A stretch of DNA of 64,000 nucleotides from Anaerolineales bacterium (GTDB taxonomy: Bacteria > Chloroflexota > Anaerolineae > Anaerolineales > UBA11858), in assembly GCA_045888315.1 (NCBI GenBank), contig JBGCVQ010000051.1:13038-77037 (forward strand), in the 5' to 3' direction. The stretch's first letter is position 1, and the number at the start of each line of letters is the position of its first letter. This document shows positions 18,098 to 31,023 of this stretch, in pieces. The notes below the pieces were generated by a model. It did not search any database and was not told the DNA's origin. It saw nothing but the letters and a program-made list of their open reading frames with translations. Both the position numbers and the translations under genes were made by a program.

Positions 18098-18346
18098 ACC
18101 TTCCAACAGGGCTCTTGTTTCCTTGTTAATGAGTTAAAAATGCAATATATAGTTGTTGAGAGAACTGAAAGCGTAATAATTATGTGATGGTATAAAAAAT
18201 GATTTTTAAGATAATTATGAATGATGATGGATAAAGAGTCCCGGGAGAATAATAAAAGTATATGAAAGCATGTCCCGGAAAGCTTGATTTCTATGGTCTG
18301 CGGTAGAATGTTTAAAGATCAATTGGGTATCAAGGAGTTGCGGGCA

Positions 18347-20356
18347 ATGACAGATAACAGCACTTTGGATCGAACAGCAGTCAACACCATCCGTTTCCTG
18401 GCTGCGGATGCAATTCAGAAAGCGAATTCAGGGCATCCGGGTTTGCCCATGGGTACCGCGGCTCTGGCGTACACGCTGTGGACAAAACACCTCAATCACA
18501 ATCCGGCTAACCCACACTGGGCTAACAGAGACCGATTTGTCCTCTCGGGCGGTCATGGCTCAATGCTGTTGTATGCCTTGCTGCATCTGACGGGATATGA
18601 TCTCTCATTGGACCAGATCAAGAACTTCCGGCAGTGGGGCAGCTTGACTCCAGGACATCCGGAATACGGATTGACGCCTGGTGTTGAGACCACCACGGGT
18701 CCACTTGGGCAGGGATTTGGGAATGGGGTGGGTTTTGCGATCGCAGAGGCTCATCTTGCTGCTGAATTCAATCGAGCTGGTTTTCCTGTCATCGATCACT
18801 ATACCTACGGACTGGTCACAGATGGGGATCTGATGGAAGGGGTATCTTCCGAAGCGGCTTCCCTGGCTGGACATTTGGCGCTTGGAAAATTGATCTATTT
18901 ATACGATAACAACCACATCACCATCGACGGATCCACCGACCTGGCTTTTACGGAGGACAGGGGTGCCAGGTTCGAGGCTTATAACTGGCAGGTCCTGCGC
19001 TTGGAGGACGGCAATGACATCGCCGCCGTGGACCGGGCCATCCAGGAAGCCAAGCTCGACCCCCGGCCTTCACTGATCATCTGCCGGACCCATATTGGCT
19101 ACGGACTGCCCACCAAGCAGGACACGGCAGAAGCCCATGGTTCTCCTCCGGGGGACGCGGAGCTTGATGGAGCCAAGAAAGCCCTGGGATGGCCGACTGA
19201 ACCTCGCTTTTATATTCCGGAAGAAGCCCGAAGCCTGTTCCTGAAAGCTCTGGAAGAAGGACGTGAGAAAGAGAAGAACTGGCAGGACCTCCTGGAGGCT
19301 TACACAAAAGCCTATCCTGACCAGGCTGCAGAATTGAAGCGCAGATTGGCAGGAGACCTCCCTGAGGTGTGGGACGTGCCGGAATTCCCGGCGGATCCCA
19401 AAGGAATGGCCACCCGGGCGGCATCAGGGAAAGTGATCAATCACCTGGCTGGGCAAATCCCAGAACTGCTGGGCGGGTCAGCGGACCTGGCGCCGTCCAA
19501 TAAGACCTGGATCAATGGCCAGCCTGATTTCCAGCCAGGCCGCTACCAGGGACGGAATTTCCATTTTGGTGTCAGGGAACATGGTATGGGCGCGATCATC
19601 AACGGGATGGCACTGCATGGCGGCTTGATCCCCTACGGTGGCACATTCCTGGTATTCTCTGATTATTTGCGGCCTGCTTTGCGGTTGGCTGCTTTATCGC
19701 ACATTCCGGATATCTGGGTCTTCACCCATGACAGCATCGGTGTCGGAGAAGATGGACCGACGCACCAGCCCATAGAGCATTTAGCCGCGCTGCGGGCGAT
19801 CCCGCAGCTGGTAACGATTCGTCCTGCTGACGCTAATGAGACAGCCCAGGCCTGGCTCTACGCTATCAATCACCGCCATGGACCAACTGTTTTCGCTCTT
19901 ACCCGCCAGTCTCTGCCGGTGATCGACCGCAGCCGCTACCAGAGTGCAGCAGGTTTGCACAAAGGAGCCTATATCCTGGGAGACCTGGGAGAGGATGGAC
20001 CTGAATTGATCCTGATGGCGTCAGGATCCGAGGTCGACTTGATCATCAAAGCTGGAGAAAAGCTGCAAGCGGAAGGGATCAGCCTGCGGTTGGTATCCTT
20101 CCCGAGCTGGGAGCTGTTCCTTCAGCAGGACCAGTCCTACCGGGATGAAGTGCTGCCGCCCGCCATCAAGGCCAGGCTGGCTGTGGAGGCAGGGGTTTCC
20201 CAGGGCTGGAAGGAATGGGTGGGGGATGAGGGAATGATCATCGGCATTGACAAGTTTGGAGCCTCAGCTCCTGCAGACCGGATCTTCAAGGAGTATGGAT
20301 TTACCGTGGACAATGTGATCGCCACTGTCAACGAGTTGAGAAGGAGGCTGAAATAA
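18347..20356 (+). CDS. tkt: Transketolase
   Basis: [46 protein letters not shown]. The ATG at 18347 has an AAGGAG Shine-Dalgarno 9 nt upstream. The ORF is open from 18284. Confidence 0.95.
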
Positions 20357-20823
20357 TGCGTGTAGCCATTGGAATGGACCACGGAGGAATCCCCCTCAGG
20401 GAACCCCTGCTTGCATATCTCGAGGAATTGGGGTACGAGGTACTCGATTTTGGCACGGATTCTCCTAAAAGCGTCGATTATCCGGATTTCGCCGAAAAGG
20501 TCGGCCGGGCACTCCAGGAAGGCAGGGCTGACCGAGGTGTGTTGATCTGCGGATCTGGAGTAGGCGTGTGCATCTCAGCCAATAAGATACCTGGTGTGTA
20601 CGCTGCTACTTGCCATGACGCTTACAGCGCCAGGCAGGGAGTAGAGCATGATCATATGAATGTATTGTGCCTGGGAGGTCGCGTTATCGGGGATGAACTG
20701 GCTAAATTGCTGGTGAAGGAATTCCTGAGCGCAGAATATATCGGCGATAAACCTGGAGGAGAAAGGCATGCCCGCCGGGTGGGAAAGATTATCGATCTAG
20801 AGCAAAAAGGATTAGGTAAATGA
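20356..20823 (+). CDS. rpiB: Ribose-5-phosphate isomerase B
   Basis: [29 protein letters not shown], 155 aa. Its start overlaps the tkt stop. Confidence 0.9.
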   Translation: MRVAIGMDHGGIPLREPLLAYLEELGYEVLDFGTDSPKSVDYPDFAEKVGRALQEGRADRGVLICGSGVGVCISANKIPGVYAATCHDAYSARQGVEHDHMNVLCLGGRVIGDELAKLLVKEFLSAEYIGDKPGGERHARRVGKIIDLEQKGLGK

Positions 20824-21950
20824 ACGTCAGGATAGAGAAACTTAACCAGATCGGTCAATCGCTCTGGTATGACAATATAGAAAGGAAATTACTGGATGAT
20901 GGCACTTTGGAAAAGATGATCCAGCGTGGTGAGATCAGGGGGATGACCTCGAATCCGAGTATCTTCAACAAAGCCATCAGCAAATCCAATGATTATGATG
21001 ATCAGATCAAGAACCTGGTAGGGAAAGGGCTTTCCAGGGAAGAGATCTTTGAGAAACTCTCCGTGGCTGATATCCAGCAGGCAGCGGATCTTTTTGCGGA
21101 TCTGTATGATGAGACAGAAGGAAGGGATGGTTTCGTTAGTCTGGAAGTCAGTCCTTATCTGGCCGCTCAGACACAGGAAACGATCGCAGAAGCCAAGAAA
21201 CTCTGGCATCTCGTCAACCGTCCTAACTTGATGGTCAAGATCCCTGCTACCAAAGAAGGCTTACCGGCGATCACGGAATGCATCTCAGCTGGGTTGAACA
21301 TCAATGTCACCTTGATCTTCAGCCTCACCAGGTACCAGGAGGTGATCGACGCCTATCTGGCTGGCCTGGAAAACAGGTCTGCAGCGGGCCTGCCTCTGGA
21401 TCGTGCCGCCTCGGTAGCGTCCTTCTTCATTTCCAGGATTGACAGCAAGGTCGATGGTGAATTGGATGGCCTGCTGCAAGGTAAGGTTGGCGACCAGGGT
21501 GATAAATTCCGGTCCATGTTGGGAAAAGCTGGCCTGGCCAGTGGAAAGCTTGCCTACCAGATCTTCTTGGACAATTTTGAGCGCCAGGGGCAGAGGTTCC
21601 ATAAGCTGCAGGAGCTCGGTGCCCGTCCCCAACGAGCCCTGTGGGCTTCCACCAGCACTAAGAACCCTGCTTACCCGGATACCATGTACGTGGATAACCT
21701 GATAGCGCCCTGGACTGTCAATACCGTTCCCCCGCAGACCCTGGTAGCGTTCCTCGACCACGGAAAAGCGGATCTGTCCATTGAGACTGGTCTGGCGGAC
21801 TATCAGCAAGCTTTCCAGGATCTTGGCTCAGCAGGCATCGATATCGACCAGGTGACGGATGAATTGGAGCAAGAAGGCGTCAAAGCCTTCGCAGACGCAT
21901 TTACTTCCCTGCTGAACTCCCTCCAAAAGCGGATGGACGATTTCAGCTGA
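20820..21950 (+). CDS. tal: Transaldolase (long form)
   Basis: GQSLWYDNI..TSNPSIF..LMVKIPAT motifs. Confidence 0.9.
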   Translation: MNVRIEKLNQIGQSLWYDNIERKLLDDGTLEKMIQRGEIRGMTSNPSIFNKAISKSNDYDDQIKNLVGKGLSREEIFEKLSVADIQQAADLFADLYDETEGRDGFVSLEVSPYLAAQTQETIAEAKKLWHLVNRPNLMVKIPATKEGLPAITECISAGLNINVTLIFSLTRYQEVIDAYLAGLENRSAAGLPLDRAASVASFFISRIDSKVDGELDGLLQGKVGDQGDKFRSMLGKAGLASGKLAYQIFLDNFERQGQRFHKLQELGARPQRALWASTSTKNPAYPDTMYVDNLIAPWTVNTVPPQTLVAFLDHGKADLSIETGLADYQQAFQDLGSAGIDIDQVTDELEQEGVKAFADAFTSLLNSLQKRMDDFS

Positions 21951-21970
21951 CACCAGATTGTTTACAAGGA

Positions 21971-22612
21971 ATGATGAAAGGGCACGAACCTGAAACTATG
22001 GCAGGAATGACCCCGGATTTGAAGGAGGTCCTCGAGCGTTTGATTGCTCCAGATGCGCATCTGCGAAGTGGGGCTGTGGATGAATTGGCAGAAGTAGAAG
22101 GGGTTGAGGATGATCCCCTGTTCATCTACCTGCTGGCGACCCGGCTGTTGGACCCTGACCTGGAAATCCGCTTCCAGGTAGTGAAGGTGTTAGGACGGAT
22201 GCTTGAGTTCGAGCATAACCAGCACACCCTGCAGGGCAGGTCTTTGGAAATACTGGTCAGCTACCTGGCTGATTTTGAGAAGGACCAATATGTCAAGCTG
22301 CTGGAGGTCAGTGAAGCCTATTTAGCGGCAGAGGAATCGCTGACTGCGATCCTCAAAGTGTGTTCCTATGCGGGTAACTCTTTGGGTGGTATAGTGAATG
22401 ACCGCAAACTGCCAGTTCGGATCCGCCAGCAGGCGATCTTCTTCTGCGGCGAGATCGGTTTCATGGGTACAGCTGATGCTTTGAGAAATTTGATTTCGCG
22501 GGTGGAAAAAGATCGGATCCGGTCGGGGTTTGAGGCTGCTCGCAAGAATAAAAAGGATCAAGAGGCCCTTTATACGTATGCCTTATCTGCTCTGGGCAAG
22601 TTGGGGGTATAA
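21971..22612 (+). CDS. HEAT-repeat-like protein (hypothetical)
   Basis: Repeated helical LxxxDxxVRxxAxxxLG-like segments (LRSGAVDELAEV, LEIRFQVVKVLGRM, VRIRQQAIFFCGEIG). The assignment is weak. Confidence 0.45.
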   Translation: MMKGHEPETMAGMTPDLKEVLERLIAPDAHLRSGAVDELAEVEGVEDDPLFIYLLATRLLDPDLEIRFQVVKVLGRMLEFEHNQHTLQGRSLEILVSYLADFEKDQYVKLLEVSEAYLAAEESLTAILKVCSYAGNSLGGIVNDRKLPVRIRQQAIFFCGEIGFMGTADALRNLISRVEKDRIRSGFEAARKNKKDQEALYTYALSALGKLGV

Positions 22613-22633
22613 TTGCTCCCCAAAGGACAGAGA

Positions 22634-23257
22634 ATGGTCAAGAGAGTCCCGATCTTCATAGTCGTGCTGATAAGCCTAGTGGCTGTGGTCTTGTTCACAC
22701 TGGGAACAGAACAAGCCCTGGCATCTGGAACTGGCCAGCAGCCGACAGTATCCATCCCGACTGTCACTGGTTCACCGCAAGGTCCGATGGCTATCGTCTA
22801 CTCCGATCCCGAGGACCAGATCAATGTCCGCTCTGGGCCCGATGTTTTCTATCCCAAAGTGGGTGTGCTGATCAATCGTCAGCAGGTTCCCGCGCTGGCC
22901 CAAACGGAAGGCGGAGTGTGGGTGAAGATCGTATATCCTGGTGTTCCAGAGGGAGTTGCCTGGGTGTACGCTCCTTACGTCCGAGTGACTGGAGAGCTCC
23001 CCGTCGTCCCTAAACCGCCCACGCCTACCCCGGAAACCACGCCAACCATAGACCCCACCTTGGCTTCCCAATTCATCTCCGAGATCCCACCTACCAGGAA
23101 ACCCACTTATACTCCCGCGCCTCCTTTGGTCGTGCCGACCTATCAACCGGTCCAGATTTCCAGCGGTACTGGTGGTCTGCCCAGTGGTTTCATCATCCTC
23201 GGGTTGGCGTCAGTGGGCTTGTTTGGCCTGGTAGTGTCTTTCTTGAGGCGCTCCTGA
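22634..23257 (+). CDS. SH3b-domain protein with Pro/Thr-rich linker and C-terminal TM anchor
   Basis: N-terminal signal/TM, SH3b-like INVRSGPDVFYPKVGVL..GVWVKIVY, PTPTPETTPT linker and a C-terminal hydrophobic helix. The ATG at 22634 has an AAGGA Shine-Dalgarno. The ORF is open from 22613. Confidence 0.6.
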   Translation: MVKRVPIFIVVLISLVAVVLFTLGTEQALASGTGQQPTVSIPTVTGSPQGPMAIVYSDPEDQINVRSGPDVFYPKVGVLINRQQVPALAQTEGGVWVKIVYPGVPEGVAWVYAPYVRVTGELPVVPKPPTPTPETTPTIDPTLASQFISEIPPTRKPTYTPAPPLVVPTYQPVQISSGTGGLPSGFIILGLASVGLFGLVVSFLRRS

Positions 23258-23283
23258 TCAGCAGAACGAAGGATACTTAATAG

Positions 23284-23315
23284 AAAAAGACCAGGTGAGA
23301 TAACCTGGTCTTTTT
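23284..23315. terminator. Bidirectional rho-independent terminator
   Basis: AAAAAGACCAGG-TGAGATAA-CCTGGTCTTTTT between convergent genes. Confidence 0.85.
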
Positions 23316-23338
23316 ATTTTATGATCTTGCTCTTGTTC

Positions 23339-23695
23339 CTATCCGCAGCCGGTGGCGGGATCGCAGCCTGCGCATCCTCCCGAGTAAGCTGGGTTAGGGG
23401 CGTTCTGCTCGATCAGGAAACCACTGCGGTTGTTCTCTTCCACAAACTTGATGGTTGCGCTTTGCAGATACGCCAGGGTTTGGCCATCAACGATGACCTG
23501 TACGCCATGGCTGGTATAAACCTCGTCGCTGTCTCCGACCTGGTTATCCAGTGACATGCCGTACTGTGGGCCCCCTCAACCAACTCCTGCGATGAAAATT
23601 CGCAGGGAATGGCCCTCAAGATCCTGGTCCTTCAATAGCGTCTTTACGGCTATGGCTGCTTCTGGGGTCAGGGTGATGTTTTGTGTGTTTTCCAT
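23339..23695 (-). CDS. HesB/IscA-like Fe-S assembly protein with in-frame TGA (probable selenocysteine) at 23576-23578
   Basis: Hand translation from the ATG at 23695 gives MENTQNITLTPEAAIAVKTLLKDQDLEGHSLRIFIAGVG-[TGA]-GGPQYGMSLDNQ... This continues in frame into track ORF 23339-23557. The TGA aligns with the first ligand Cys of IscA (LRLGVRTSGCSGMAY). Confidence 0.7.
23549..23566 (-). other. Weak candidate SECIS-like hairpin downstream of the in-frame UGA
   Basis: mRNA CAGUAC-GGCAU-GU(C)ACUG starts 9 nt after the UGA. The stem is only 6 bp with a bulge, judged by eye. Confidence 0.2.
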
Positions 23696-23889
23696 GACTT
23701 TCCTGTGAGGTGAAATTAATAAATGTCACTATTTGAAGAATTTTAGCAGGATTGGCAGGTCTGTCAACGGCATTAGGGTGCCTGATTACAATCTTAGGGG
23801 GGAAATACGATGAAAATCACCTGAAAAAGGGCGTGATTGATTAGAAAAATGTAAAAAGAACTCTGGAAAAGCGTCGGGGGAGAGGCTGG

Positions 23890-23898
23890 TGTTATAAT
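23890..23898 (+). promoter_or_regulatory. Candidate extended -10 (TGTTATAAT) for the LmbE-like gene
   Basis: Perfect TGnTATAAT. It sits 5 nt before the first possible GTG, which argues for the downstream TTG start. Confidence 0.4.
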
Positions 23899-23942
23899 CC
23901 AGCGTGATTGGCAGTGGAATCCAATCAGAGGGAGATGGAAAG

Positions 23943-24800
23943 TTGGAAAAAAGGATCTTAGCGGTGCTGGCTCATCCAGATGATGAGTCATTTGGAATGG
24001 GTGGAACCCTGGCGAAATACGCCAGCGAGGGTGCCCGGGTCCAGCTGATCTGTGCCACCCGGGGTGAATCAGGAGAGGTTGAGCCTGCGTTCTTGGAAGG
24101 CCGCTCATCGATCGCGGATCTGCGCGTTGCTGAGCTTGACTGCGCTGCAAAAACCCTGGGGATAGAACAAGTACATCTGCTTCCATATCGGGATTCCGGT
24201 ATGACTGGCAGCCCCAACAATCAGCATCCCCAGGCGTTGATCAATGCTTCCCAGGATAAGGTGGCAGCCGAGATTGCGGATGTCATGAGAGAGTTCAAAC
24301 CGCAGGTGGTGTTGACCTTCGATCCTATTGGGGGCTACCGCCATCCCGACCACATTTTTATCCAACAAGCCGCTACCCGGGCCTTCCAATTGGCTGGGGA
24401 CCCGGGCTATCACAGCGCTCTAGAAGCTTTCCAGCCGTCCAGGCTCTATTATCACACCATCCCGCGCCGCTTTATCCGCTTCAACGTCCGCCTACTCAAG
24501 CTGCTGGGGAAGGACCCCAGCCGTTACGGGAAGAACAAGGATATCGACCTGACGAAAATGGCCGTCGACGATTTTCCTGTACACGTCAAGGTCCAATATG
24601 CCTCTGTCAAGGAAAAGAAACTGAACGCGTCCCGCTGCCATGCCAGCCAGGGAGGGCAGGGATTGACCAGAGGTCCCATGCGCTGGATCGCCTGGCTGTT
24701 AGGTGGAAAGCCGGCTGATCAGTTCATGCAGGCTTTTCCCGATCCTTCCTCTTTGAACGGGAAAGTCGCTGATGACCTATTTGCTGGGCTGCAGCAGTAG
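23943..24800 (+). CDS. PIG-L/LmbE-family N-acetylglucosaminyl deacetylase
   Basis: ILAVLAHPDDESFGMGGTLAKY and HPDH motifs. The TTG at 23943 has a GGGAG Shine-Dalgarno 8 nt upstream. The ORF is open from the GTG at 23904. Confidence 0.8.
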   Translation: MEKRILAVLAHPDDESFGMGGTLAKYASEGARVQLICATRGESGEVEPAFLEGRSSIADLRVAELDCAAKTLGIEQVHLLPYRDSGMTGSPNNQHPQALINASQDKVAAEIADVMREFKPQVVLTFDPIGGYRHPDHIFIQQAATRAFQLAGDPGYHSALEAFQPSRLYYHTIPRRFIRFNVRLLKLLGKDPSRYGKNKDIDLTKMAVDDFPVHVKVQYASVKEKKLNASRCHASQGGQGLTRGPMRWIAWLLGGKPADQFMQAFPDPSSLNGKVADDLFAGLQQ

Positions 24801-24812
24801 ACACGGAACATT

Positions 24813-24848
24813 AAAGAACCTGGCTCCAACTGCTGCCAGGTTCTTTTT
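24813..24848. terminator. Bidirectional rho-independent terminator
   Basis: AGAACCTGGC-(10 nt)-GCCAGGTTCT followed by TTTTT, with an A-run on the other side. It lies between convergent genes. Confidence 0.8.
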
Positions 24849-24881
24849 ACGTTTCATGGACTTCTCCGGCTCCAAATTGGA

Positions 24882-25532
24882 CTATGACCTTTCCTTTACC
24901 AGATAGATGCCGGGAATGCTGATGATCGTGGTCACTCCTTTGATGATCATGTTGCTGAAGAAGATCGAAGTGACGACACTCAAGGGCATCTTCCCATAGA
25001 ATGCCAGGAAACTGAACAGGAAGCTGTCGACCGGGATGCTGAGGGAATTACTGAACACAACCCGAGCCCATTCATAGCGCCGGGTCACTTTTTCGACCCA
25101 GATCCTGTACCCTTCGGTATCGATCAATTCCGCGATCACTTCTGCTATGATCGAGGCTAGAACGATCCGCCAGACCGGGGACAGCAAGGTCCCAAATGCG
25201 GTTTGGGGACCTACTGCCAGATCTGGGGGTAAGCTGGATACCAGCTTGAAGAACAGCGCCATAAGCACATTCACAACAGCTGCTGAGATGATCAGCATCC
25301 GGGCGATCTTGATGCCTGCTACTTTGTGCACCATGTCGCGGAGAGTGAAAGTCAGGGGATATATGAATGTGCCGGCATCTATGGAAAAACCAGCCACGAG
25401 TACGATCTGCAAACTGGCAATATCAGACAGCATCTGGGCAGCGACATAGAAGATCGACACCAGGACAGCCGAGGCCATCAGGTTAGTTTCCTCATTCCTT
25501 AGCTTCACAGTTGATGCTTCCATGGCTTTCAA
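24882..25532 (-). CDS. VUT-family queuosine-precursor transporter (YhhQ-like)
   Basis: Six-TM protein with a DAGTFIYPLTFTLRDMVHKV-type block typical of YhhQ/DUF165. The start is ambiguous (TTG 25532, ATG 25523 or a later ATG). Confidence 0.7.
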   Translation of the reverse strand: MKAMEASTVKLRNEETNLMASAVLVSIFYVAAQMLSDIASLQIVLVAGFSIDAGTFIYPLTFTLRDMVHKVAGIKIARMLIISAAVVNVLMALFFKLVSSLPPDLAVGPQTAFGTLLSPVWRIVLASIIAEVIAELIDTEGYRIWVEKVTRRYEWARVVFSNSLSIPVDSFLFSFLAFYGKMPLSVVTSIFFSNMIIKGVTTIISIPGIYLVKERS

Positions 25533-25972
25533 TCCTGGATCGTGAGGTCCTTGAGCGCCTGGCGAAGATGGTGGGCGTTTTTCTCCAGCTCTTCCTTGGT
25601 AGGAAGTTCAGCAGAGCGTGCTGATAGATTCAATTCAAAGCCATCGTTTTCAGCGCGGGGTATGATGTGCAGCTGCAGATGGGGGATGTTCTGGCCGGCA
25701 GCTCTGCCATCAGCCAGGTAGAGGTTGATCCCGTCGCACTCGAATCCGCTTCCGCGGATTGCTGATGCCAGATGCTGGCTAACGCGGATGAGATGGTGAG
25801 CGGTCTCGAGCGGCAGATCCTCTAAGGATCCGATGTGCTCGTTCGGTATCAACAATACATGGCCTGGATTGACAGGCTGCATGATCATCAGCGCTGAACA
25901 AAGGGAATTCTGATAGACGAAAGTTGCTGCCAGATCTCCTTTGATCATTCTACAGAAAGGACAATCTTCCAT
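25529..25972 (-). CDS. HIT-family nucleotide hydrolase/transferase
   Basis: Histidine triad HLQLHIIPR and an N-terminal CPFC zinc-like motif. 147 aa. Confidence 0.85.
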   Translation of the reverse strand: MEDCPFCRMIKGDLAATFVYQNSLCSALMIMQPVNPGHVLLIPNEHIGSLEDLPLETAHHLIRVSQHLASAIRGSGFECDGINLYLADGRAAGQNIPHLQLHIIPRAENDGFELNLSARSAELPTKEELEKNAHHLRQALKDLTIQD

Positions 25973-26016
25973 AATGGTTCCTTAGCTTGCCGCTGTAGAA
26001 GAGACCGGCTCATACG

Positions 26017-27567
26017 CTACTTGAAGCTGGCTTGGAATTCTGCCAGGAATCGGCCTTCCTCGAGCAGTTCTCTGACCGTATCGATTTCCGGACCCCAAAG
26101 AGTATCCCCAGCCTGGTAGGGGACATGCTGGCGGATGATGTGCTGGGCAGCCTGGGTTCCTTTGCCTGGTTGGAGGTCAGGATGCTCACGGAGGCGGAGA
26201 TCGATCGCCCTGGCTGCGGTGTAGAGTTCGATAGCCAACACCTGCCGGGTATTGGTGACGATCTCATAAGCATGCCGGGCAGCTGTCATCGCGTTTGCGT
26301 TGTGATCTTCTTGAGAGGCAGAAGTCGGCAAGGAATAGAGCGAATCCGGGCCTGCCAGCGCCCGATTCTCTAGCACCAGGGAGGCTGCCGTGTACTGAGG
26401 CATCATCATCCCTGAATTCAGCCCAGCTGACTGCCTGCTGTCAACCAGCATAGGAGGCAGACCATTATTGAGATTGCCGTCTGTCAGGCGGTAGATCCTG
26501 CGTTCGGATATACCGGCGATCTCTGCCAGGGCAATTCCCAGGAAATCCATCACCAGCCCGACAGGTTCACCGTGGAAGTTGCCGCCTGAAACCGCTTCTC
26601 TTTCAGGGAAGATCAGCGGGTTGTCAGTGGCAGCGTTGACTTCTCGGGCGATCACTGCCTCGGTGAAATCCAGCGTCTCGTAGACAGGACCGTGTACCTG
26701 GGGACTGCAGCGTAAGGAGTACGCATCCTGGACGTGGGGGGCTGAGCCGAGCAGTGTGCTGCCCTCCGTGAGGTTGCGGATCCTTTCAGCGAAGGCGATC
26801 TGACCGGGGTGTTGGCGGGATTCATGAATGCGGGCATCAAAAGCGCTGGAGATACCTGCCAATCCTTCTAGACTCAATGCCAGGGCGATCTCTGAAATGG
26901 ACAACAGCTGTCTGGCTTGCCAGCATACCAAGGCAGCAATGGCGGCGGAAAATGTTGCCCCGTTATTGAGAGCGATACCTTCCTTGGCTTCCAGGATCAC
27001 CCGGGCGATACCCGCCTTGTGCATCGCTTCTTGCCCTGTGAATACTTGACCTTGATACTCCGCAAATCCTGAGTGTTCAGCCAGGTCCTGTTCCCCTCTG
27101 GAAAGCACCAGCGCGAGATGGGACAGGGGAGCCAGATCTCCGGAGGAGCCCAAGGATCCCTGAGAAGGAATTCGCGGGTGGACACCTTTATTGAGCATCT
27201 CCAGAAGGGTTTCGATCAGGGAGAGGCGGACTCCCGAAAATCCCTTGGCGAGGGTATTGGCCCGGATCAGCATAGCAGCCCTGACAATATCCACCGGAAG
27301 TTCCGGTCCAGTACCCACGGCGTGGCTGAGGATCAGGTTCCGGTTCAAGATCCTGATTTCCTTGCTCGATATCTTGGAGTCCGCGAAAATCCCGAACCCG
27401 GTATTGATGCCGTAGACAGGCTTGCCTTGTTCAATGATCTCCTCTACCCAGAGGCGAGAACGCTCGATGTCCTTGATAGCAGTCGGCCGGATCACGACTT
27501 GCTCGCGATCGACCGCTGCTTGCTGGATTTCTGCAATTGTGAGGGAGTTCCCATCGATTTCGATCAT
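26017..27567 (-). CDS. hutH: Histidine ammonia-lyase family (HAL/PAL/TAL/aminomutase) enzyme
   Basis: YGINTGFG and GSLGSSGDLAPLSHL (MIO region, Ser-Ser-Gly here), NGATFS, QEDH. The hutH symbol is tentative because no hutU/hutI is nearby. Confidence 0.8.
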   Translation of the reverse strand: MIEIDGNSLTIAEIQQAAVDREQVVIRPTAIKDIERSRLWVEEIIEQGKPVYGINTGFGIFADSKISSKEIRILNRNLILSHAVGTGPELPVDIVRAAMLIRANTLAKGFSGVRLSLIETLLEMLNKGVHPRIPSQGSLGSSGDLAPLSHLALVLSRGEQDLAEHSGFAEYQGQVFTGQEAMHKAGIARVILEAKEGIALNNGATFSAAIAALVCWQARQLLSISEIALALSLEGLAGISSAFDARIHESRQHPGQIAFAERIRNLTEGSTLLGSAPHVQDAYSLRCSPQVHGPVYETLDFTEAVIAREVNAATDNPLIFPEREAVSGGNFHGEPVGLVMDFLGIALAEIAGISERRIYRLTDGNLNNGLPPMLVDSRQSAGLNSGMMMPQYTAASLVLENRALAGPDSLYSLPTSASQEDHNANAMTAARHAYEIVTNTRQVLAIELYTAARAIDLRLREHPDLQPGKGTQAAQHIIRQHVPYQAGDTLWGPEIDTVRELLEEGRFLAEFQASFK

Positions 27568-27617
27568 TCTTAGCCCTTCCGGAGATACTATTTCAATCTT
27601 TTCAGCGTTATCTGTAA

Positions 27618-28409
27618 TTACCAGGGCAGAGGATAATCCTGGCAGGGTTTTACGCCCTGGTCGATATATTTATACATGGTCACATTTGAAAAAGGCTCCC
27701 CAAGGATATTGTCATGGATTGCCCAGGAGCGCAGACGGATCTGTTTCTCTGCGCCTGGCTGGCGGAAAGTACTGCTGCCATCCAGAAGAGGCAGCAGATC
27801 GCCGTCCGTGGAAAAACCATCGTTGATCCGTTTCATCAGGCGCTTGCCGGATTGGTAGTGGAAATGGTAGCGCTCGAAAATGATCGCCACATGATAAAAA
27901 AGCGGCTCGACGAAGAATAGATCCTGTCCCATGCAAGCTACGAAACTTTCAAATTGCCGCAGGGTCTCTTTGAACAGGTGGGGTCCCCGGTAGATCTGTC
28001 CTGGCGCCAGGCCGGCCTTGAAGGCCAGTTCCTCGGCTTCCAGGTTGCGGTGGTCTGTCCCGAATCCCGTCTTGGTGCCATCTGGGAGGCGGTCCACGTT
28101 GAAGCGAGGCGATTCGACATCGTTCATCCCGTACAGAAGGATATGGAGCTGGCCGTTGATCGAATCTGCGATGTGCCCAAAAAGCACTGGATCAGATGCG
28201 CCGGCCTGGTGGTAAAGGGCGAGTTCGGCATCCGCTGCACCAGGCTGGCATTTCACCTTGAAAAGGTCACTGCCGTCCTGGTCCTTGAGATCGGGCTGGA
28301 TCTGGTACATATCCAGCAGTTCAGGCGGGATGATCTTGGCGTAGATCTCCCTTTTCTCTTGGGCAGGAAGTTGGTTTAGAGCACCGATAGTGGATGGAAA
28401 ACTCATCAT
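27618..28409 (-). CDS. Hypothetical protein (263 aa, no domain recognised)
   Basis: Long clean ORF with coding-like composition, 50 nt upstream of the HAL-family gene on the same strand. Confidence 0.6.
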   Translation of the reverse strand: MMSFPSTIGALNQLPAQEKREIYAKIIPPELLDMYQIQPDLKDQDGSDLFKVKCQPGAADAELALYHQAGASDPVLFGHIADSINGQLHILLYGMNDVESPRFNVDRLPDGTKTGFGTDHRNLEAEELAFKAGLAPGQIYRGPHLFKETLRQFESFVACMGQDLFFVEPLFYHVAIIFERYHFHYQSGKRLMKRINDGFSTDGDLLPLLDGSSTFRQPGAEKQIRLRSWAIHDNILGEPFSNVTMYKYIDQGVKPCQDYPLPW

Positions 28410-28437
28410 AAAGGACCTTCTGGTATGGTATCCCTTA

Positions 28438-28893
28438 TTAATAGCCTACGCCCTTGAGGTCTCTCTCTACCTGGCGCTGGGCATCCCGCTCGGCAATGTC
28501 CTTTCTCTTATCTCGGAGTTTCTTCCCTCGAGCGACTGCGATCTCGATCTTGGCTTTGCCCTGAGATAGATAAACTCGCAGAGGGATGATGGTATGACCT
28601 TTGATGCGGACTTTATCCCATAATTCGAGGATTTCCTTCTTGTGGAGCAGGAGTTTCCGGCGGCGCTTGGGATTGTGGTTGTAGAGGCTGGCCTGCTCGT
28701 AAGGGTGGATATAGGAATCGATCAGCCAGGCTTCTTCTCCATCGATGTGGACATAGGCTTGATCGATGCTGACCTGGTGATTGCGTATAGACTTAATCTC
28801 TGATCCCTGCAGAACAAGACCGGCTTCGTAGGTGTCCAGGATGTGGAAATTGAAATACGCCTTCTTGTTCTTGGCGATCGTTTTCCCGCTCAT
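28438..28893 (-). CDS. smpB: SsrA-binding protein
   Basis: IAKNKKAYFNFHILDTYEAGLVLQGSEIKSIR..KLLLHKKEI. The ORF is open to 28914. Confidence 0.9.
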   Translation of the reverse strand: MSGKTIAKNKKAYFNFHILDTYEAGLVLQGSEIKSIRNHQVSIDQAYVHIDGEEAWLIDSYIHPYEQASLYNHNPKRRRKLLLHKKEILELWDKVRIKGHTIIPLRVYLSQGKAKIEIAVARGKKLRDKRKDIAERDAQRQVERDLKGVGY

Positions 28894-28932
28894 GCGACCC
28901 ATTTTAGCACACATTGACTGGCAGGATGCCTG

Positions 28933-30000
28933 CTAGTCAATCACGATGCGGGTGCCGTAGCCGTTATTATGCCAATCGCAGTGATTGCGGTAAGGGGGGT
29001 CGTAGGGAGGATTTACCCAGCGGAAGAGCCACTTGGCGTCGCTGTTGCGCATGTTGACACAGCCGTGGCTCATCCGGTTGCCGAAATTATTGTGCCAGTA
29101 CGTGCCGTGGAAGGCTACTCCGGTCTCGTAGATGAAGAAAGAAGTCCAGGGAACACCGGGCAGCGTGTAGCTGCCGGGCGCTCCCGTGGCAACCACACCT
29201 CCCATATGTTTGGAAGGATATTTGGATGTGATGTAAAAAGTGCCCCGGGGAGTTGCTGTCGCGAACGGATCCCTGGGATCGACTTCCTTGTAACCCAGCC
29301 CAGAGGATACTTTTGTCTTGAAAACCAGTTTCTCGCCCTCGTAGGCGCTCAATTCCTGGTCGTTGAGAGATACCCGGATGTGTTTCTCTTCCGGGGGAAC
29401 TTGGATGCTGGTAGGTAGATATTCCACGTCCTGGACCAGCCGGAGGTGATCCCTCCTGACATGATAGGTCAAGGATCCGGAAAGCTGGGATGTCAGCTCG
29501 TACCAGTCGTTCCCATCAGGTCCTGGCTTGATACCAGTGATCCAGTGAGTGGTTTCATAATACAAGCGGTACTTCTTTGTCCAGCCCTCATATTCGCTGT
29601 AAGAATAGGCATCAGTGAATGGGACAGTGACCTCCGAGAGATTTCCGCATTCAAAGATCCTGTCGACCGGCTGATTCAAGCGGTAGCGGGTCAGCTGGAC
29701 ATAGACTCCTGGCAGGTAACCTCCCCAGACCCGGTACCAGGTTTGCGGGGGACCCTCCTCTCCCTCGACTTCCAACTTATAGTAAAGATTCAGAAGTTCA
29801 TCAAATGTCGTCTCCCGCACGATCTCGCTGTCTTCACTGGGCTCCTGGTGGATAGAGATCACCTTCTCGTCTGCAGCTATCCTGCCGATAACCCCAATGA
29901 TCCGATCGACCCCGTGCGCCGGGACCCAGGACCTGAATCCAGCACCCAGCAGGGAAAATAGGGATAACCTTAAGAAATCTCTCCGAGAAAACTTTGACAA
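28933..30000 (-). CDS. L,D-transpeptidase (YkuD domain) with Tat-type signal
   Basis: C-terminal HGTYWHNNFGNRMSHGCVNMR catalytic motif. The TTG at 30000 (GGGAGGG Shine-Dalgarno 6 nt upstream) gives MSKFSRRDFLRLSLFSLLGAG. The track ORF extends to 30303 but overlaps the divergent radical-SAM gene. Confidence 0.8.
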   Translation of the reverse strand: MSKFSRRDFLRLSLFSLLGAGFRSWVPAHGVDRIIGVIGRIAADEKVISIHQEPSEDSEIVRETTFDELLNLYYKLEVEGEEGPPQTWYRVWGGYLPGVYVQLTRYRLNQPVDRIFECGNLSEVTVPFTDAYSYSEYEGWTKKYRLYYETTHWITGIKPGPDGNDWYELTSQLSGSLTYHVRRDHLRLVQDVEYLPTSIQVPPEEKHIRVSLNDQELSAYEGEKLVFKTKVSSGLGYKEVDPRDPFATATPRGTFYITSKYPSKHMGGVVATGAPGSYTLPGVPWTSFFIYETGVAFHGTYWHNNFGNRMSHGCVNMRNSDAKWLFRWVNPPYDPPYRNHCDWHNNGYGTRIVID

Positions 30001-30108
30001 ACTCAACCCTCCCAAGCAAATTCTACTCAAGTCCAGTACTGATAGCAAGCAGACGGATGGCAGTAGTTTAGGACCTGTCCCGGTATAATACCATCGAAAG
30101 GGGAAGAG

Positions 30109-31023
30109 ATGATGAATACCCAACCATCCTATCTGGAATTGCTTCAGGGTGGAACCCTGGCTGAGAAAGCTGAAGAGATTGCTGGGCGTTTGGGGTGCTG
30201 CGATCTCTGCCCCCGGGAGTGCGGGGTCAACCGCTTGAATAACGAGGTCGGAAGCTGCGGGATCGGCAGCTCTGCTTGGGTCAGCAGTTACGGGCCGCAC
30301 CATGGCGAAGAGGATCCCCTGCGCGGGATTTATGGTTCAGGAACGATCTTTTTCAGCGGCTGCAATTTGAGCTGTCTATACTGCCAGAACGCGGATATCA
30401 GCCAGCAGCGCACTGGGTATCCCGTCAGCCCTACTCAGCTGGCTGGGATCATGCTTGAGATCCAGGCTATGGGCTGCCATAACATCAACCTGGTCTCCCC
30501 GACCCATGTAGCAGCCCAGATTGCCCTGGCTTTGGTGCTGGCCGCGGAAAAGGGCCTGACCCTGCCCCTGGTATATAACTCAGGGGGCTACGACTCTCTT
30601 TCCACTCTGTCCTCCCTGGAAGGGATGATCGATGTCTATATGCCGGATATGAAATACAGTACACCGGAAGTTGGAGCTCGTTATTCGGGGGTGGAGGATT
30701 ACCCCCAAAGAAACAGGGCAGCTGTCCTGGAAATGCACCGCCAGGTGGGGGATCTGATGCTTGATGAGAGCGGCATAGCTCTACGGGGATTATTGATCAG
30801 GCATTTGATCCTACCTGATGATTTGGCCGGCTCGCAGCGGACTCTGGCTTTCATCGCTCGGGAGATCTCCCCCGCAACTTATCTGAACATCATGGACCAA
30901 TACCGGCCGGCTCACCGGGCTGGCCGCTATCCGGAACTGGTCCGAGGGATCACGAAGGCTGAATATCTTGAGGTCATCGGTCAGGCAAAGGGTCTGGGAT
31001 TGACGAGGTTGGATCGAGGGTGA
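30109..31023 (+). CDS. Radical SAM protein, PflX-like (pyruvate formate-lyase activase homologue)
   Basis: CDLCPRECGVNR N-terminal motif and CNLSCLYCQN radical-SAM cluster motif. Confidence 0.75.
   Translation: MMNTQPSYLELLQGGTLAEKAEEIAGRLGCCDLCPRECGVNRLNNEVGSCGIGSSAWVSSYGPHHGEEDPLRGIYGSGTIFFSGCNLSCLYCQNADISQQRTGYPVSPTQLAGIMLEIQAMGCHNINLVSPTHVAAQIALALVLAAEKGLTLPLVYNSGGYDSLSTLSSLEGMIDVYMPDMKYSTPEVGARYSGVEDYPQRNRAAVLEMHRQVGDLMLDESGIALRGLLIRHLILPDDLAGSQRTLAFIAREISPATYLNIMDQYRPAHRAGRYPELVRGITKAEYLEVIGQAKGLGLTRLDRG

Follow-up and report, generated by a model that had tools for sequence, protein, structure and literature searches.

The window analysed here, a 64-kb stretch of Anaerolineales DNA, carries on its minus strand a reading frame (23339-23695) that resembles the HesB/IscA family and is interrupted by an in-frame TGA. 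This raises the question of whether the TGA ends a short peptide or lies within one gene and, in the latter case, which amino acid is placed there. A sequence-only reading of the window had proposed a HesB/IscA-like selenoprotein missed by ORF calling. The analysis supports that proposal, with selenocysteine (Sec) still the inferred residue; the frame very probably represents a recoded A-type carrier gene in which a predicted Sec has replaced the first ligand cysteine.

The reading frame across the TGA

From the ATG at 23695 on the minus strand the frame reads MENTQNITLTPEAAIAVKTLLKDQDLEGHSLRIFIAGVG, meets the TGA at 23576-23578, resumes with GGPQYGMSLDNQ and ends with GGCAGCDPATGCG, followed by a TAG stop (23339-23341). 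Translation of the minus strand gives 39 sense codons before the TGA and 78 after it with no change of frame, a complete coding sequence of 118 codons including the recoded UGA; the single 118-aa gene that had been proposed, running unshifted through the TGA, is thereby confirmed. For profile searches of the 118-aa product a cysteine was substituted at the TGA position. The fused protein matches PF01521 (Fe-S_biosyn) with 47.5 bits (cutoff 26.3, E 2.4e-12) and TIGR00049 (“iron-sulfur cluster assembly accessory protein”) with 77 bits against a cutoff of 58.8, and both alignments cross the UGA junction, extending from residues 6/7 to residues 96/109. It is clear from the sequence, the profile HMMs, the alignments and the dN/dS values given below that 23339-23695 is one continuous gene for an A-type Fe-S carrier of the HesB/IscA/ErpA superfamily.

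The in-frame UGA is codon 40, and its conservation and alignment make it the proposed Sec codon, with the predicted residue set in the motif U40-G-G-P43. In phmmer alignments to proteins of solved structure, codon 40 falls on Cys35 of E. coli IscA/YfhF (1R94, 1S98; SGCSGMAY), which is the first cluster ligand, and on the ligand cysteine of HI1723 (2APN, GGGCSGFQYG) and of Aq_1857 (1NWB); the earlier placing of the TGA on the first ligand cysteine of IscA is borne out by these alignments. The match to IscA, SufA and ErpA (1R94, 1S98, 2D2A, 2APN) runs from end to end, the Pfam and TIGR00049 cutoffs are passed, and the elements LR(I/V)xV...G-[C/U]-x-G...QYG...GV.V.VD...GF.I.NPN are common to all. 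The window protein differs from them in having a predicted Sec in place of the ligand-1 cysteine, followed by G-G-P rather than S-G, and in its tail, which is C-x2-C-x5-C where theirs is C-G-C-G-x-S-F.

This C-terminal cysteine motif, G-C108-A-G-C111-D-P-x-T-G-C117-G (23342-23377, minus strand), had been remarked on as an oddity from the sequence, and it is real: G107, C108, A109, G110, C111, D112, P113, T115, G116 and C117 are invariant across 13 orthologues. The canonical C-x-C ligand pair of the CGCGxSF type is absent and the C-x2-C-x5-C spacing is invariant in the clade; C108 aligns by phmmer with the first cysteine of the C-terminal ligand pair of IscA and HI1723.

The signals that precede codon 1 are also conserved. 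A sigma-70-type promoter (23740-23767, minus strand; an 11/12 match) consists of TTGACA (23762-23767), a 16-nt spacer and the extended -10 element TGcTAAAAT (23740-23748), and almost every orthologous locus retains it as GTTGACA-N15-16-TGCTAmAAT. Between promoter and start, the 5' leader on the same strand (23698-23723) carries the motif TTTATTAATTTCA (23711-23723) and the Shine-Dalgarno sequence AGGAAAG (23698-23704). Both are kept across orthologues, and the leader motif, an AGGA Shine-Dalgarno sequence and the ATG at codon 1 are found in essentially all of them.

Conservation of codon 40 and constraint on the RNA

Scans of a genome collection and of metagenomes gave 80 loci. Neither of the metagenome patterns (LD[DN][KQ]V[SG]D[SN]D and LQ[KSR]AT[IV]K[FY][VI]) includes the Sec site, and one genome-scan pattern, CGGPQYGM, demanded a cysteine codon there. 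Codon 40 is TGA in 56 of 56 loci, made up of all 53 of the main clade, whose members come from Anaerolineales/Chloroflexota MAGs and metagenomes and are 72-98% identical, and all three of a sister subclade that is 43% identical (L006, L081, L082). TGY or TGG occurs at this codon in none of the 56. Such conservation is far beyond chance. Archaeal relatives which share the GGPQYG motif have TGT or TGC at the site. When 1.84 billion representatives were searched exhaustively, the clade came out as one cluster at 50% identity; the nearest full-length relatives outside it reach at most 47% identity, and cysteine is present in all 36 of the nearest full-length relatives that retain the site. The relatives returned by protein searches are of three types: proteins of 117-118 aa with W at position 40, all on contigs shorter than 1.3 kb; proteins of 71-72 aa which start at Met47 (P0015-P0026); and N-terminal stubs which end ...IAGVG (P0036, P0044).

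Synonymous variation is depressed around and after the UGA. The normalised heterozygosity at synonymous sites is 0.34 over codons 38-72, whereas upstream of these it is 0.71 and downstream 0.66 (Mann-Whitney p = 3e-6), and dS falls to 0.52 in the region from codon 38 to about codon 72, compared with 1.24 and 1.34 outside it, a suppression of about 2.4-fold. There is thus constraint at the level of the RNA downstream of the UGA, and a conserved SECIS-like stem-loop lies there.

The candidate SECIS is an extended stem-loop of about 41 nt at 23511-23551 (minus strand), +28 to +68 after the U of the UGA, proposed on the basis of its folding, the recoding control and covariation. In the window its basal stem pairs CUGGAUAACC with GG.UUAU.CCAG and is followed by an internal loop; above this an upper stem GUCG/CGAC (23536-23539 with 23525-23528) closes a 7-nt apical loop, GAGACAG (23529-23535), with G in first place. 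When segments from +25 to +72 were folded one by one, the stem-loop was the minimum free energy fold in all 38 unique main-clade sequences, at -10.6 to -18.8 kcal/mol. The architecture of the main clade is a basal CUGGA.../...UCCAG, an internal loop, an upper GGUC/GACC and a small apical loop that begins with G; the loop itself is GACA, on a 6-bp upper stem with a bulged A. At +39 to +52 the sister subclade forms a hairpin of 5 bp, its loop being GGGA or GAGA, in which two pairs show compensatory changes (A-U to G-C and G-C to C-G). Further members of the subclade of L006 were sought and only two were found, so the covariation across clades rests on three sequences.

As a control, 300 synonymous recodings of each gene were generated from the codon usage of the window. 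The candidate segment alone is consistently more stable than its recodings, with a mean z of -2.1 and individual values down to -3.4, whereas the upstream and downstream control segments have lower stability than theirs (z +1.3 and +0.6). Its covariation exceeds that of 500 of 500 shuffles in paired cells, double-change cells (9 against 2.7±1.4) and covariation score, though the shuffles take no account of phylogeny and related sequences can beat them without any structure. One basal pair, CG:31/UA:5/UG:3, couples a change of Leu CUG to UUG with a change of Ser AGU to Asn AAU. The high conservation of the region keeps the covariation modest.

Other folds of the same region were considered. RNAalifold, run on 45 sequences, proposed three hairpins, a structure whose covariation is not above that of shuffles. 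One of its helices, H2a (+24 to +54), would place the loop at a canonical 33 nt after the UGA, but in the ensembles of all 38 sequences its mean pair probability is 0.001, compared with 0.86 for the candidate SECIS; H2a also lacks covariation above shuffles, neither of its first two loop positions is a G, and it was rejected. The sequence-only reading had noted no more than a weak hairpin, at 23549-23566, in the place expected for a SECIS. That hairpin exists (CAGU...ACUG, +13 to +30), but as a SECIS it fails: its stem is only the 4 bp of CAGU/ACUG and neither the consensus folds nor the ensembles contain it, and the conserved stem-loop that had been looked for downstream of the UGA across homologues is instead the one at 23511-23551.

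The immediate surroundings of the UGA (23558-23584, minus strand) are conserved in sequence and could form a helix, H1 (GUUG.UUG.../...CAG..CGGC); the two codons preceding the UGA are fixed, as GTT in 44 of 44 sequences and GGT in 43 of 45. H1 was set aside as a structural element, being conserved but showing no covariation and only the stability of its recodings (z +0.3), and it may be conserved because the context of the UGA affects termination or recoding, not because of a structure. A further conserved hairpin, H3 (GGUCAUC-GUU-GAUGGCC), lies at 23482-23498 on the minus strand, +81 to +97, and is made by the fixed codons of the VIVD motif. It has one compensatory change from AU to GC, in L043, and a loop nucleotide which varies freely. 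The stability of H3 relative to recodings (mean z -1.3) is weaker than that of the candidate SECIS. Cys-type relatives use varied codons for the VIVD peptide, unlike the fixed codons of H3, and in L017, a gammaproteobacterial Cys-type locus, the VIVDD codons make an H3-like hairpin by chance.

Searches of Rfam at gathering and at permissive thresholds matched neither SECIS nor any other family. The candidate was also compared with the consensus bSECIS model, the bSECISearch model of Zhang and Gladyshev. As set out in PMC13188914, this model has an apical loop of 3-9 nt, an upper stem of 4-16 bp, a G in the first two loop positions, a minimum free energy of -7.5 kcal/mol or lower and a spacing of 16-37 nt from the UGA to the apical loop. 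The candidate is located 3' of the UGA inside the coding sequence, with a loop of 4-7 nt that begins with G and an upper stem of 4-6 bp, and it agrees with the model in loop size, stem length, position of the G and energy; its spacing, 40 nt in the window and the subclade of L006 and 42 nt in the main clade, is outside the range. Some bSECIS elements do lie outside the consensus model (PMC13188914), and the layout, with a loop on an upper stem, then an internal loop and below it a lower stem, is shared with SECIS elements from Chloroflexota (PMC13582414).

Alternative readings of the UGA

A conserved UGA with a SECIS-like element would fit equally well with recoding of the UGA as cysteine, in which a SelB-dependent, tRNASec-like tRNACys (tRNAReC, or selC*) would act together with the same stem-loop. 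Such tRNAs decode UGA as cysteine with the help of a SECIS and are found in 13-17% of surveyed genomes, where, however, they accompany the canonical tRNASec and do not replace it (PMC13582414). Furthermore, if cysteine were inserted, interchange between UGA and UGY would be expected within the clade, and yet the 56 loci contain no cysteine codon at this position, which argues against this reading. ARAGORN detected no tRNA gene in the window or in 34 related loci, hence no positive evidence for a tRNAReC, and a motif scan for SelA, SelB and SelD over 533 kb, the window together with about 470 kb of related loci, was likewise empty; since these sequences make up a small part of the genomes, the absence of sel genes and of tRNA-Sec from them is uninformative and says nothing either way. 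Overall we consider cysteine recoding to be very improbable.

The two halves of the gene evolve under the same selection. By the Nei-Gojobori method dN/dS is 0.12 for codons 5-37, upstream of the UGA, and 0.13 for codons 73-109, downstream of it, and in 45 unique DNA sequences the amino acids of codons 9-37 are kept while synonymous sites are free to vary. Equal constraint of this kind speaks against the UGA being a true stop in a split or decaying gene, which would make a 39-aa peptide and possibly a 72-aa protein restarted at Met47. The public annotations do take the form of C-terminal ORFs of 71-72 aa or N-terminal stubs, codon 47 is ATG in 93% of orthologues, and the metagenomic copy L034 has a further stop, a TAA at codon 48. 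Set against this, codon 47 is a leucine codon (TTG) in several orthologues and has no suitably spaced Shine-Dalgarno-like sequence before it, whereas the conserved promoter and Shine-Dalgarno sequence serve codon 1; a carrier that lacked β1-α1-β2 and the ligand loop would not be expected to fold like IscA. The TGA, moreover, is kept at the exact ligand-cysteine codon in every locus over a protein divergence of about 57% and with no frameshifts. The sequence-only reading had itself raised the possibility of a pseudogene, and no decay is found: the TGA persists throughout and purifying selection acts on both halves. A true stop is, in our judgement, extremely unlikely.

Equally hard to credit is readthrough of the UGA without Sec machinery, whether by a near-cognate Trp, Cys or Arg tRNA or by a lineage-wide reassignment (code 4/25): the 14 database proteins with W at this position would seem to favour it, but they come from contigs below 1.3 kb whose fetched DNA has TGA, the W being a product of gene calling with code 4/25 on such short pieces; TGA ends 23 of the 42 long ORFs in the window, where it is the commonest ordinary stop and so indicates the standard code; unprogrammed readthrough would leave the downstream RNA structure and the fixed flanking codons without explanation; and tryptophan as a cluster ligand makes no functional sense. 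Taken together, the conserved UGA, the equal dN/dS, the conserved promoter, Shine-Dalgarno sequence and ATG, and the use of TGA as a stop make the pseudogene, split-gene and code-reassignment readings very unlikely. A scan of the 64-kb window for other genes with an in-frame TGA gave no convincing candidate.

Relation to known selenoproteins and setting of the gene

HesB-like selenoproteins have been known since 2004-2006. They were first predicted in surveys of prokaryotic selenoproteomes, and they occur in Deltaproteobacteria, Clostridia, Symbiobacterium and methanogens. The sequence-only reading had pointed to such a family, correctly: it is represented by the models TIGR01911 and NF038090 and has the motif UxGP (PMC13188914, PMC1794560), and a count from 2006 gave 11 members in bacteria (PMC1794560). 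According to PMC11097638, the HesB-like selenoprotein of Methanococcus maripaludis was verified by 75Se labelling, its function being given there as still not known.

The window protein shares with the TIGR01911 family (HesB_rel_seleno) a small HesB/IscA fold of about 100-120 aa, a UGA at the first ligand cysteine, the U-x-G-P motif (U-G-G-P in the window protein) and an origin in lineages of anaerobic type. It differs in its distinctive invariant C-terminus, GCAGCDPxTGC, and in coming from Chloroflexota/Anaerolineales and lying closer to generic carriers of the ErpA/IscA type (TIGR00049). With 42.1 bits, and 42-45 for other members of the clade, it does not reach the TIGR01911 cutoff of 66.35, and of the 40 relatives nearest to it not one reaches this model. 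The second model, NF038090 (IscA_HesB_Se), is an NCBIfam subfamily of IscA/HesB which, from its name, presumably has selenoprotein members. The fold is again the same, residues 8-109 aligning to model positions 3-100 of 101, but the score of 54.9 bits (54.9-59.6 among the clade and subclade proteins tested) is below the cutoff of 85; two of the 40 nearest relatives match this model, both under the cutoff. The 40 are generic Cys-type TIGR00049 carriers. Since the clade falls below the cutoffs of both HesB selenoprotein models and is placed among Cys-type carriers, it belongs by HMM criteria to neither TIGR01911 nor NF038090, and the description that suits it best is an Anaerolineales branch, not catalogued before, of the HesB-like selenoprotein type, with the Sec predicted. 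It possibly represents an independent conversion of Cys to Sec. None of the papers examined explicitly reports a HesB-like selenoprotein for Chloroflexota/Anaerolineales.

Other selenoproteins have been described in these lineages. Single-cell genomes of Anaerolineales encode formate dehydrogenases of the Sec type together with an elongation factor specific for Sec, and SelB is encoded by Anaerolinea thermophila (PMC4959059); Sec-type group 4 hydrogenases are encoded in MAGs of Chloroflexota (PMC13582414), and Chloroflexi were credited with three selenoproteins already in 2006 (PMC1794560). These reports from the literature lend support, at the level of the lineage (Anaerolineales, Chloroflexota), to the use of Sec in the source genome.

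We infer Sec as residue 40, the reading of the stem-loop by SelB and the biochemical function of the product. Transcription would begin at the conserved strong promoter and translation at the Shine-Dalgarno sequence and ATG of 23695. At UGA codon 40 the stem-loop at 23511-23551 would recruit a SelB-type factor carrying Sec-tRNASec; with Sec inserted, translation would run on to the TAG at 23339-23341. The product would presumably bind an Fe-S cluster, or some related species of Fe/S/Se, or would transfer it, and Sec40 and the C-terminal Cys108/Cys111/Cys117 motif would provide its ligands.

On this Sec-decoding reading, all of the public gene calls recovered for the clade are wrong, being a 71-72-aa fragment, an N-terminal stub or a wrong-code “W”, and TIGR01911 and NF038090 would both miss the protein. 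A dedicated HMM built from the assembled sequences would mend dozens of MAG annotations and improve counts of the Chloroflexota selenoproteome. The clade would also be a clean case in which Sec is strictly retained at the position of an Fe-S ligand, which could help to test the role of Sec in A-type carriers, whose selenoprotein forms have no known function, and its well-sampled natural SECIS with out-of-range spacing should be useful for refining bacterial SECIS predictors. Current understanding is not overturned by a recoded HesB/IscA gene. A bolder interpretation, which we think doubtful, is that the clade has an independent third origin of Sec in A-type carriers, apart from those of TIGR01911 and NF038090, with obligate Sec (no Cys form occurs in the 56 loci) and a distinct class of SECIS characterised by the 40-42 nt spacing, the fixed codons and the hairpin at +81 to +97. 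If that were true, the geometry of SelB and ribosome in Chloroflexota would differ from the E. coli paradigm, and selenium, not sulphur, would be essential as a cluster ligand (e.g. in Fe-Se or persulfide/perselenide chemistry).

The gene is predicted to be monocistronic, having its own promoter and a terminator-like hairpin of 13 bp with flanking A/T runs (23284-23315, not assigned to a strand), which occupies the gap where the HesB-like gene and the SH3-protein gene converge. On one side its neighbours are genes for a transaldolase, a HEAT-repeat protein and an SH3_3 protein, and on the other for a PIG-L deacetylase, Vut_1, HIT, an aromatic amino acid lyase, SmpB and YkuD. No isc, suf or nif operon surrounds the gene and the adjoining housekeeping genes point to no pathway. 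The gene order is identical at locus L029. At two further loci, L069 and L083, the C-terminus of the protein is altered.

Nucleotide conservation around the UGA codon

The two codons directly 5′ of the proposed selenocysteine (Sec) codon of the HesB-like gene (codons 38-39; window 23579-23584, minus strand) are frozen among the orthologues. Codon 38 is GTT in every locus compared (44/44) and codon 39 is GGT in 43 of 45, unlike the valine and glycine codons at other sites of the same gene, which vary freely. It may be that this conservation reflects a context effect on the choice between termination and Sec insertion at the UGA.

Further 3′, at 81-97 nt past the UGA, lies a 7-bp hairpin, GGUCAUC-GUN-GAUGACC (23482-23498, minus strand), which is formed by the VIVD(D/G) motif, where the codons are fixed. 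Its loop nucleotide is free to vary among the orthologues, and a single compensatory change, from AU to GC, was found in the related locus L043. In the Cys-type relatives the codons for the VIVD(D/G) peptide vary; one of these relatives, L017, nonetheless forms the same hairpin by chance.

Upstream of the gene, the AT-rich leader motif TTTATTnnTTTCA (23711-23723, minus strand) is conserved: in nearly all of the orthologous loci it occupies the same position, 3′ of the conserved promoter and 5′ of the SD. A regulator, possibly one responsive to iron, Fe-S or selenium, could use this motif as its operator; alternatively, the motif could be a 5′-UTR element.

Gene order and a Cys-type carrier

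Gene order around the HesB-like gene (window 18284-30303) is conserved in L029, a 32-kb Logan contig (SRR19843167), over its positions 1-20216; the shared order is tkt-rpiB-tal-HEAT-SH3, the HesB-like gene, then PIG-L-Vut_1-HIT-HAL-...-SmpB-YkuD. Beyond this shared order L029 carries CCG/Fer4 (HdrD/GlpC-like) genes and ETF genes, families that include known selenoproteins.

An Anaerolineaceae MAG (L005; CAZVRZ010000014.1) encodes a Cys-type paralogue or orthologue from a related family, 50% identical, with GGGCSGYQCG at the ligand site. It scores 110.9 against the ErpA model, just under the cutoff of 117, and its extended, Cys-rich tail reads ...ACACGQTSEASEKGCAGCH. Cys-type carriers with a CAGC tail therefore exist in the same class as the HesB-like clade.

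Public gene calls and apparently damaged copies

All of the public calls recovered for the HesB-like family (P0001-P0014, P0015-P0026, P0036 and P0044) are wrong. On short contigs code 4/25 was used, which places tryptophan at the Sec site; on longer contigs the call is either a 39-aa stub or a fragment of 71-72 aa starting at Met47, the latter named ‘HesB/IscA family protein’ by NCBI.

A few metagenomic copies of the gene appear damaged. Codon 48 is TAA in L034, the C-terminal frames of L069 and L083 are altered such that the last cysteine is lost, and the database protein P0027 is a 91-aa form without residues ~25-65, and hence without the Sec codon and the candidate SECIS stem-loop. This apparent damage could stem from errors of sequencing or assembly, or from occasional decay of the gene.
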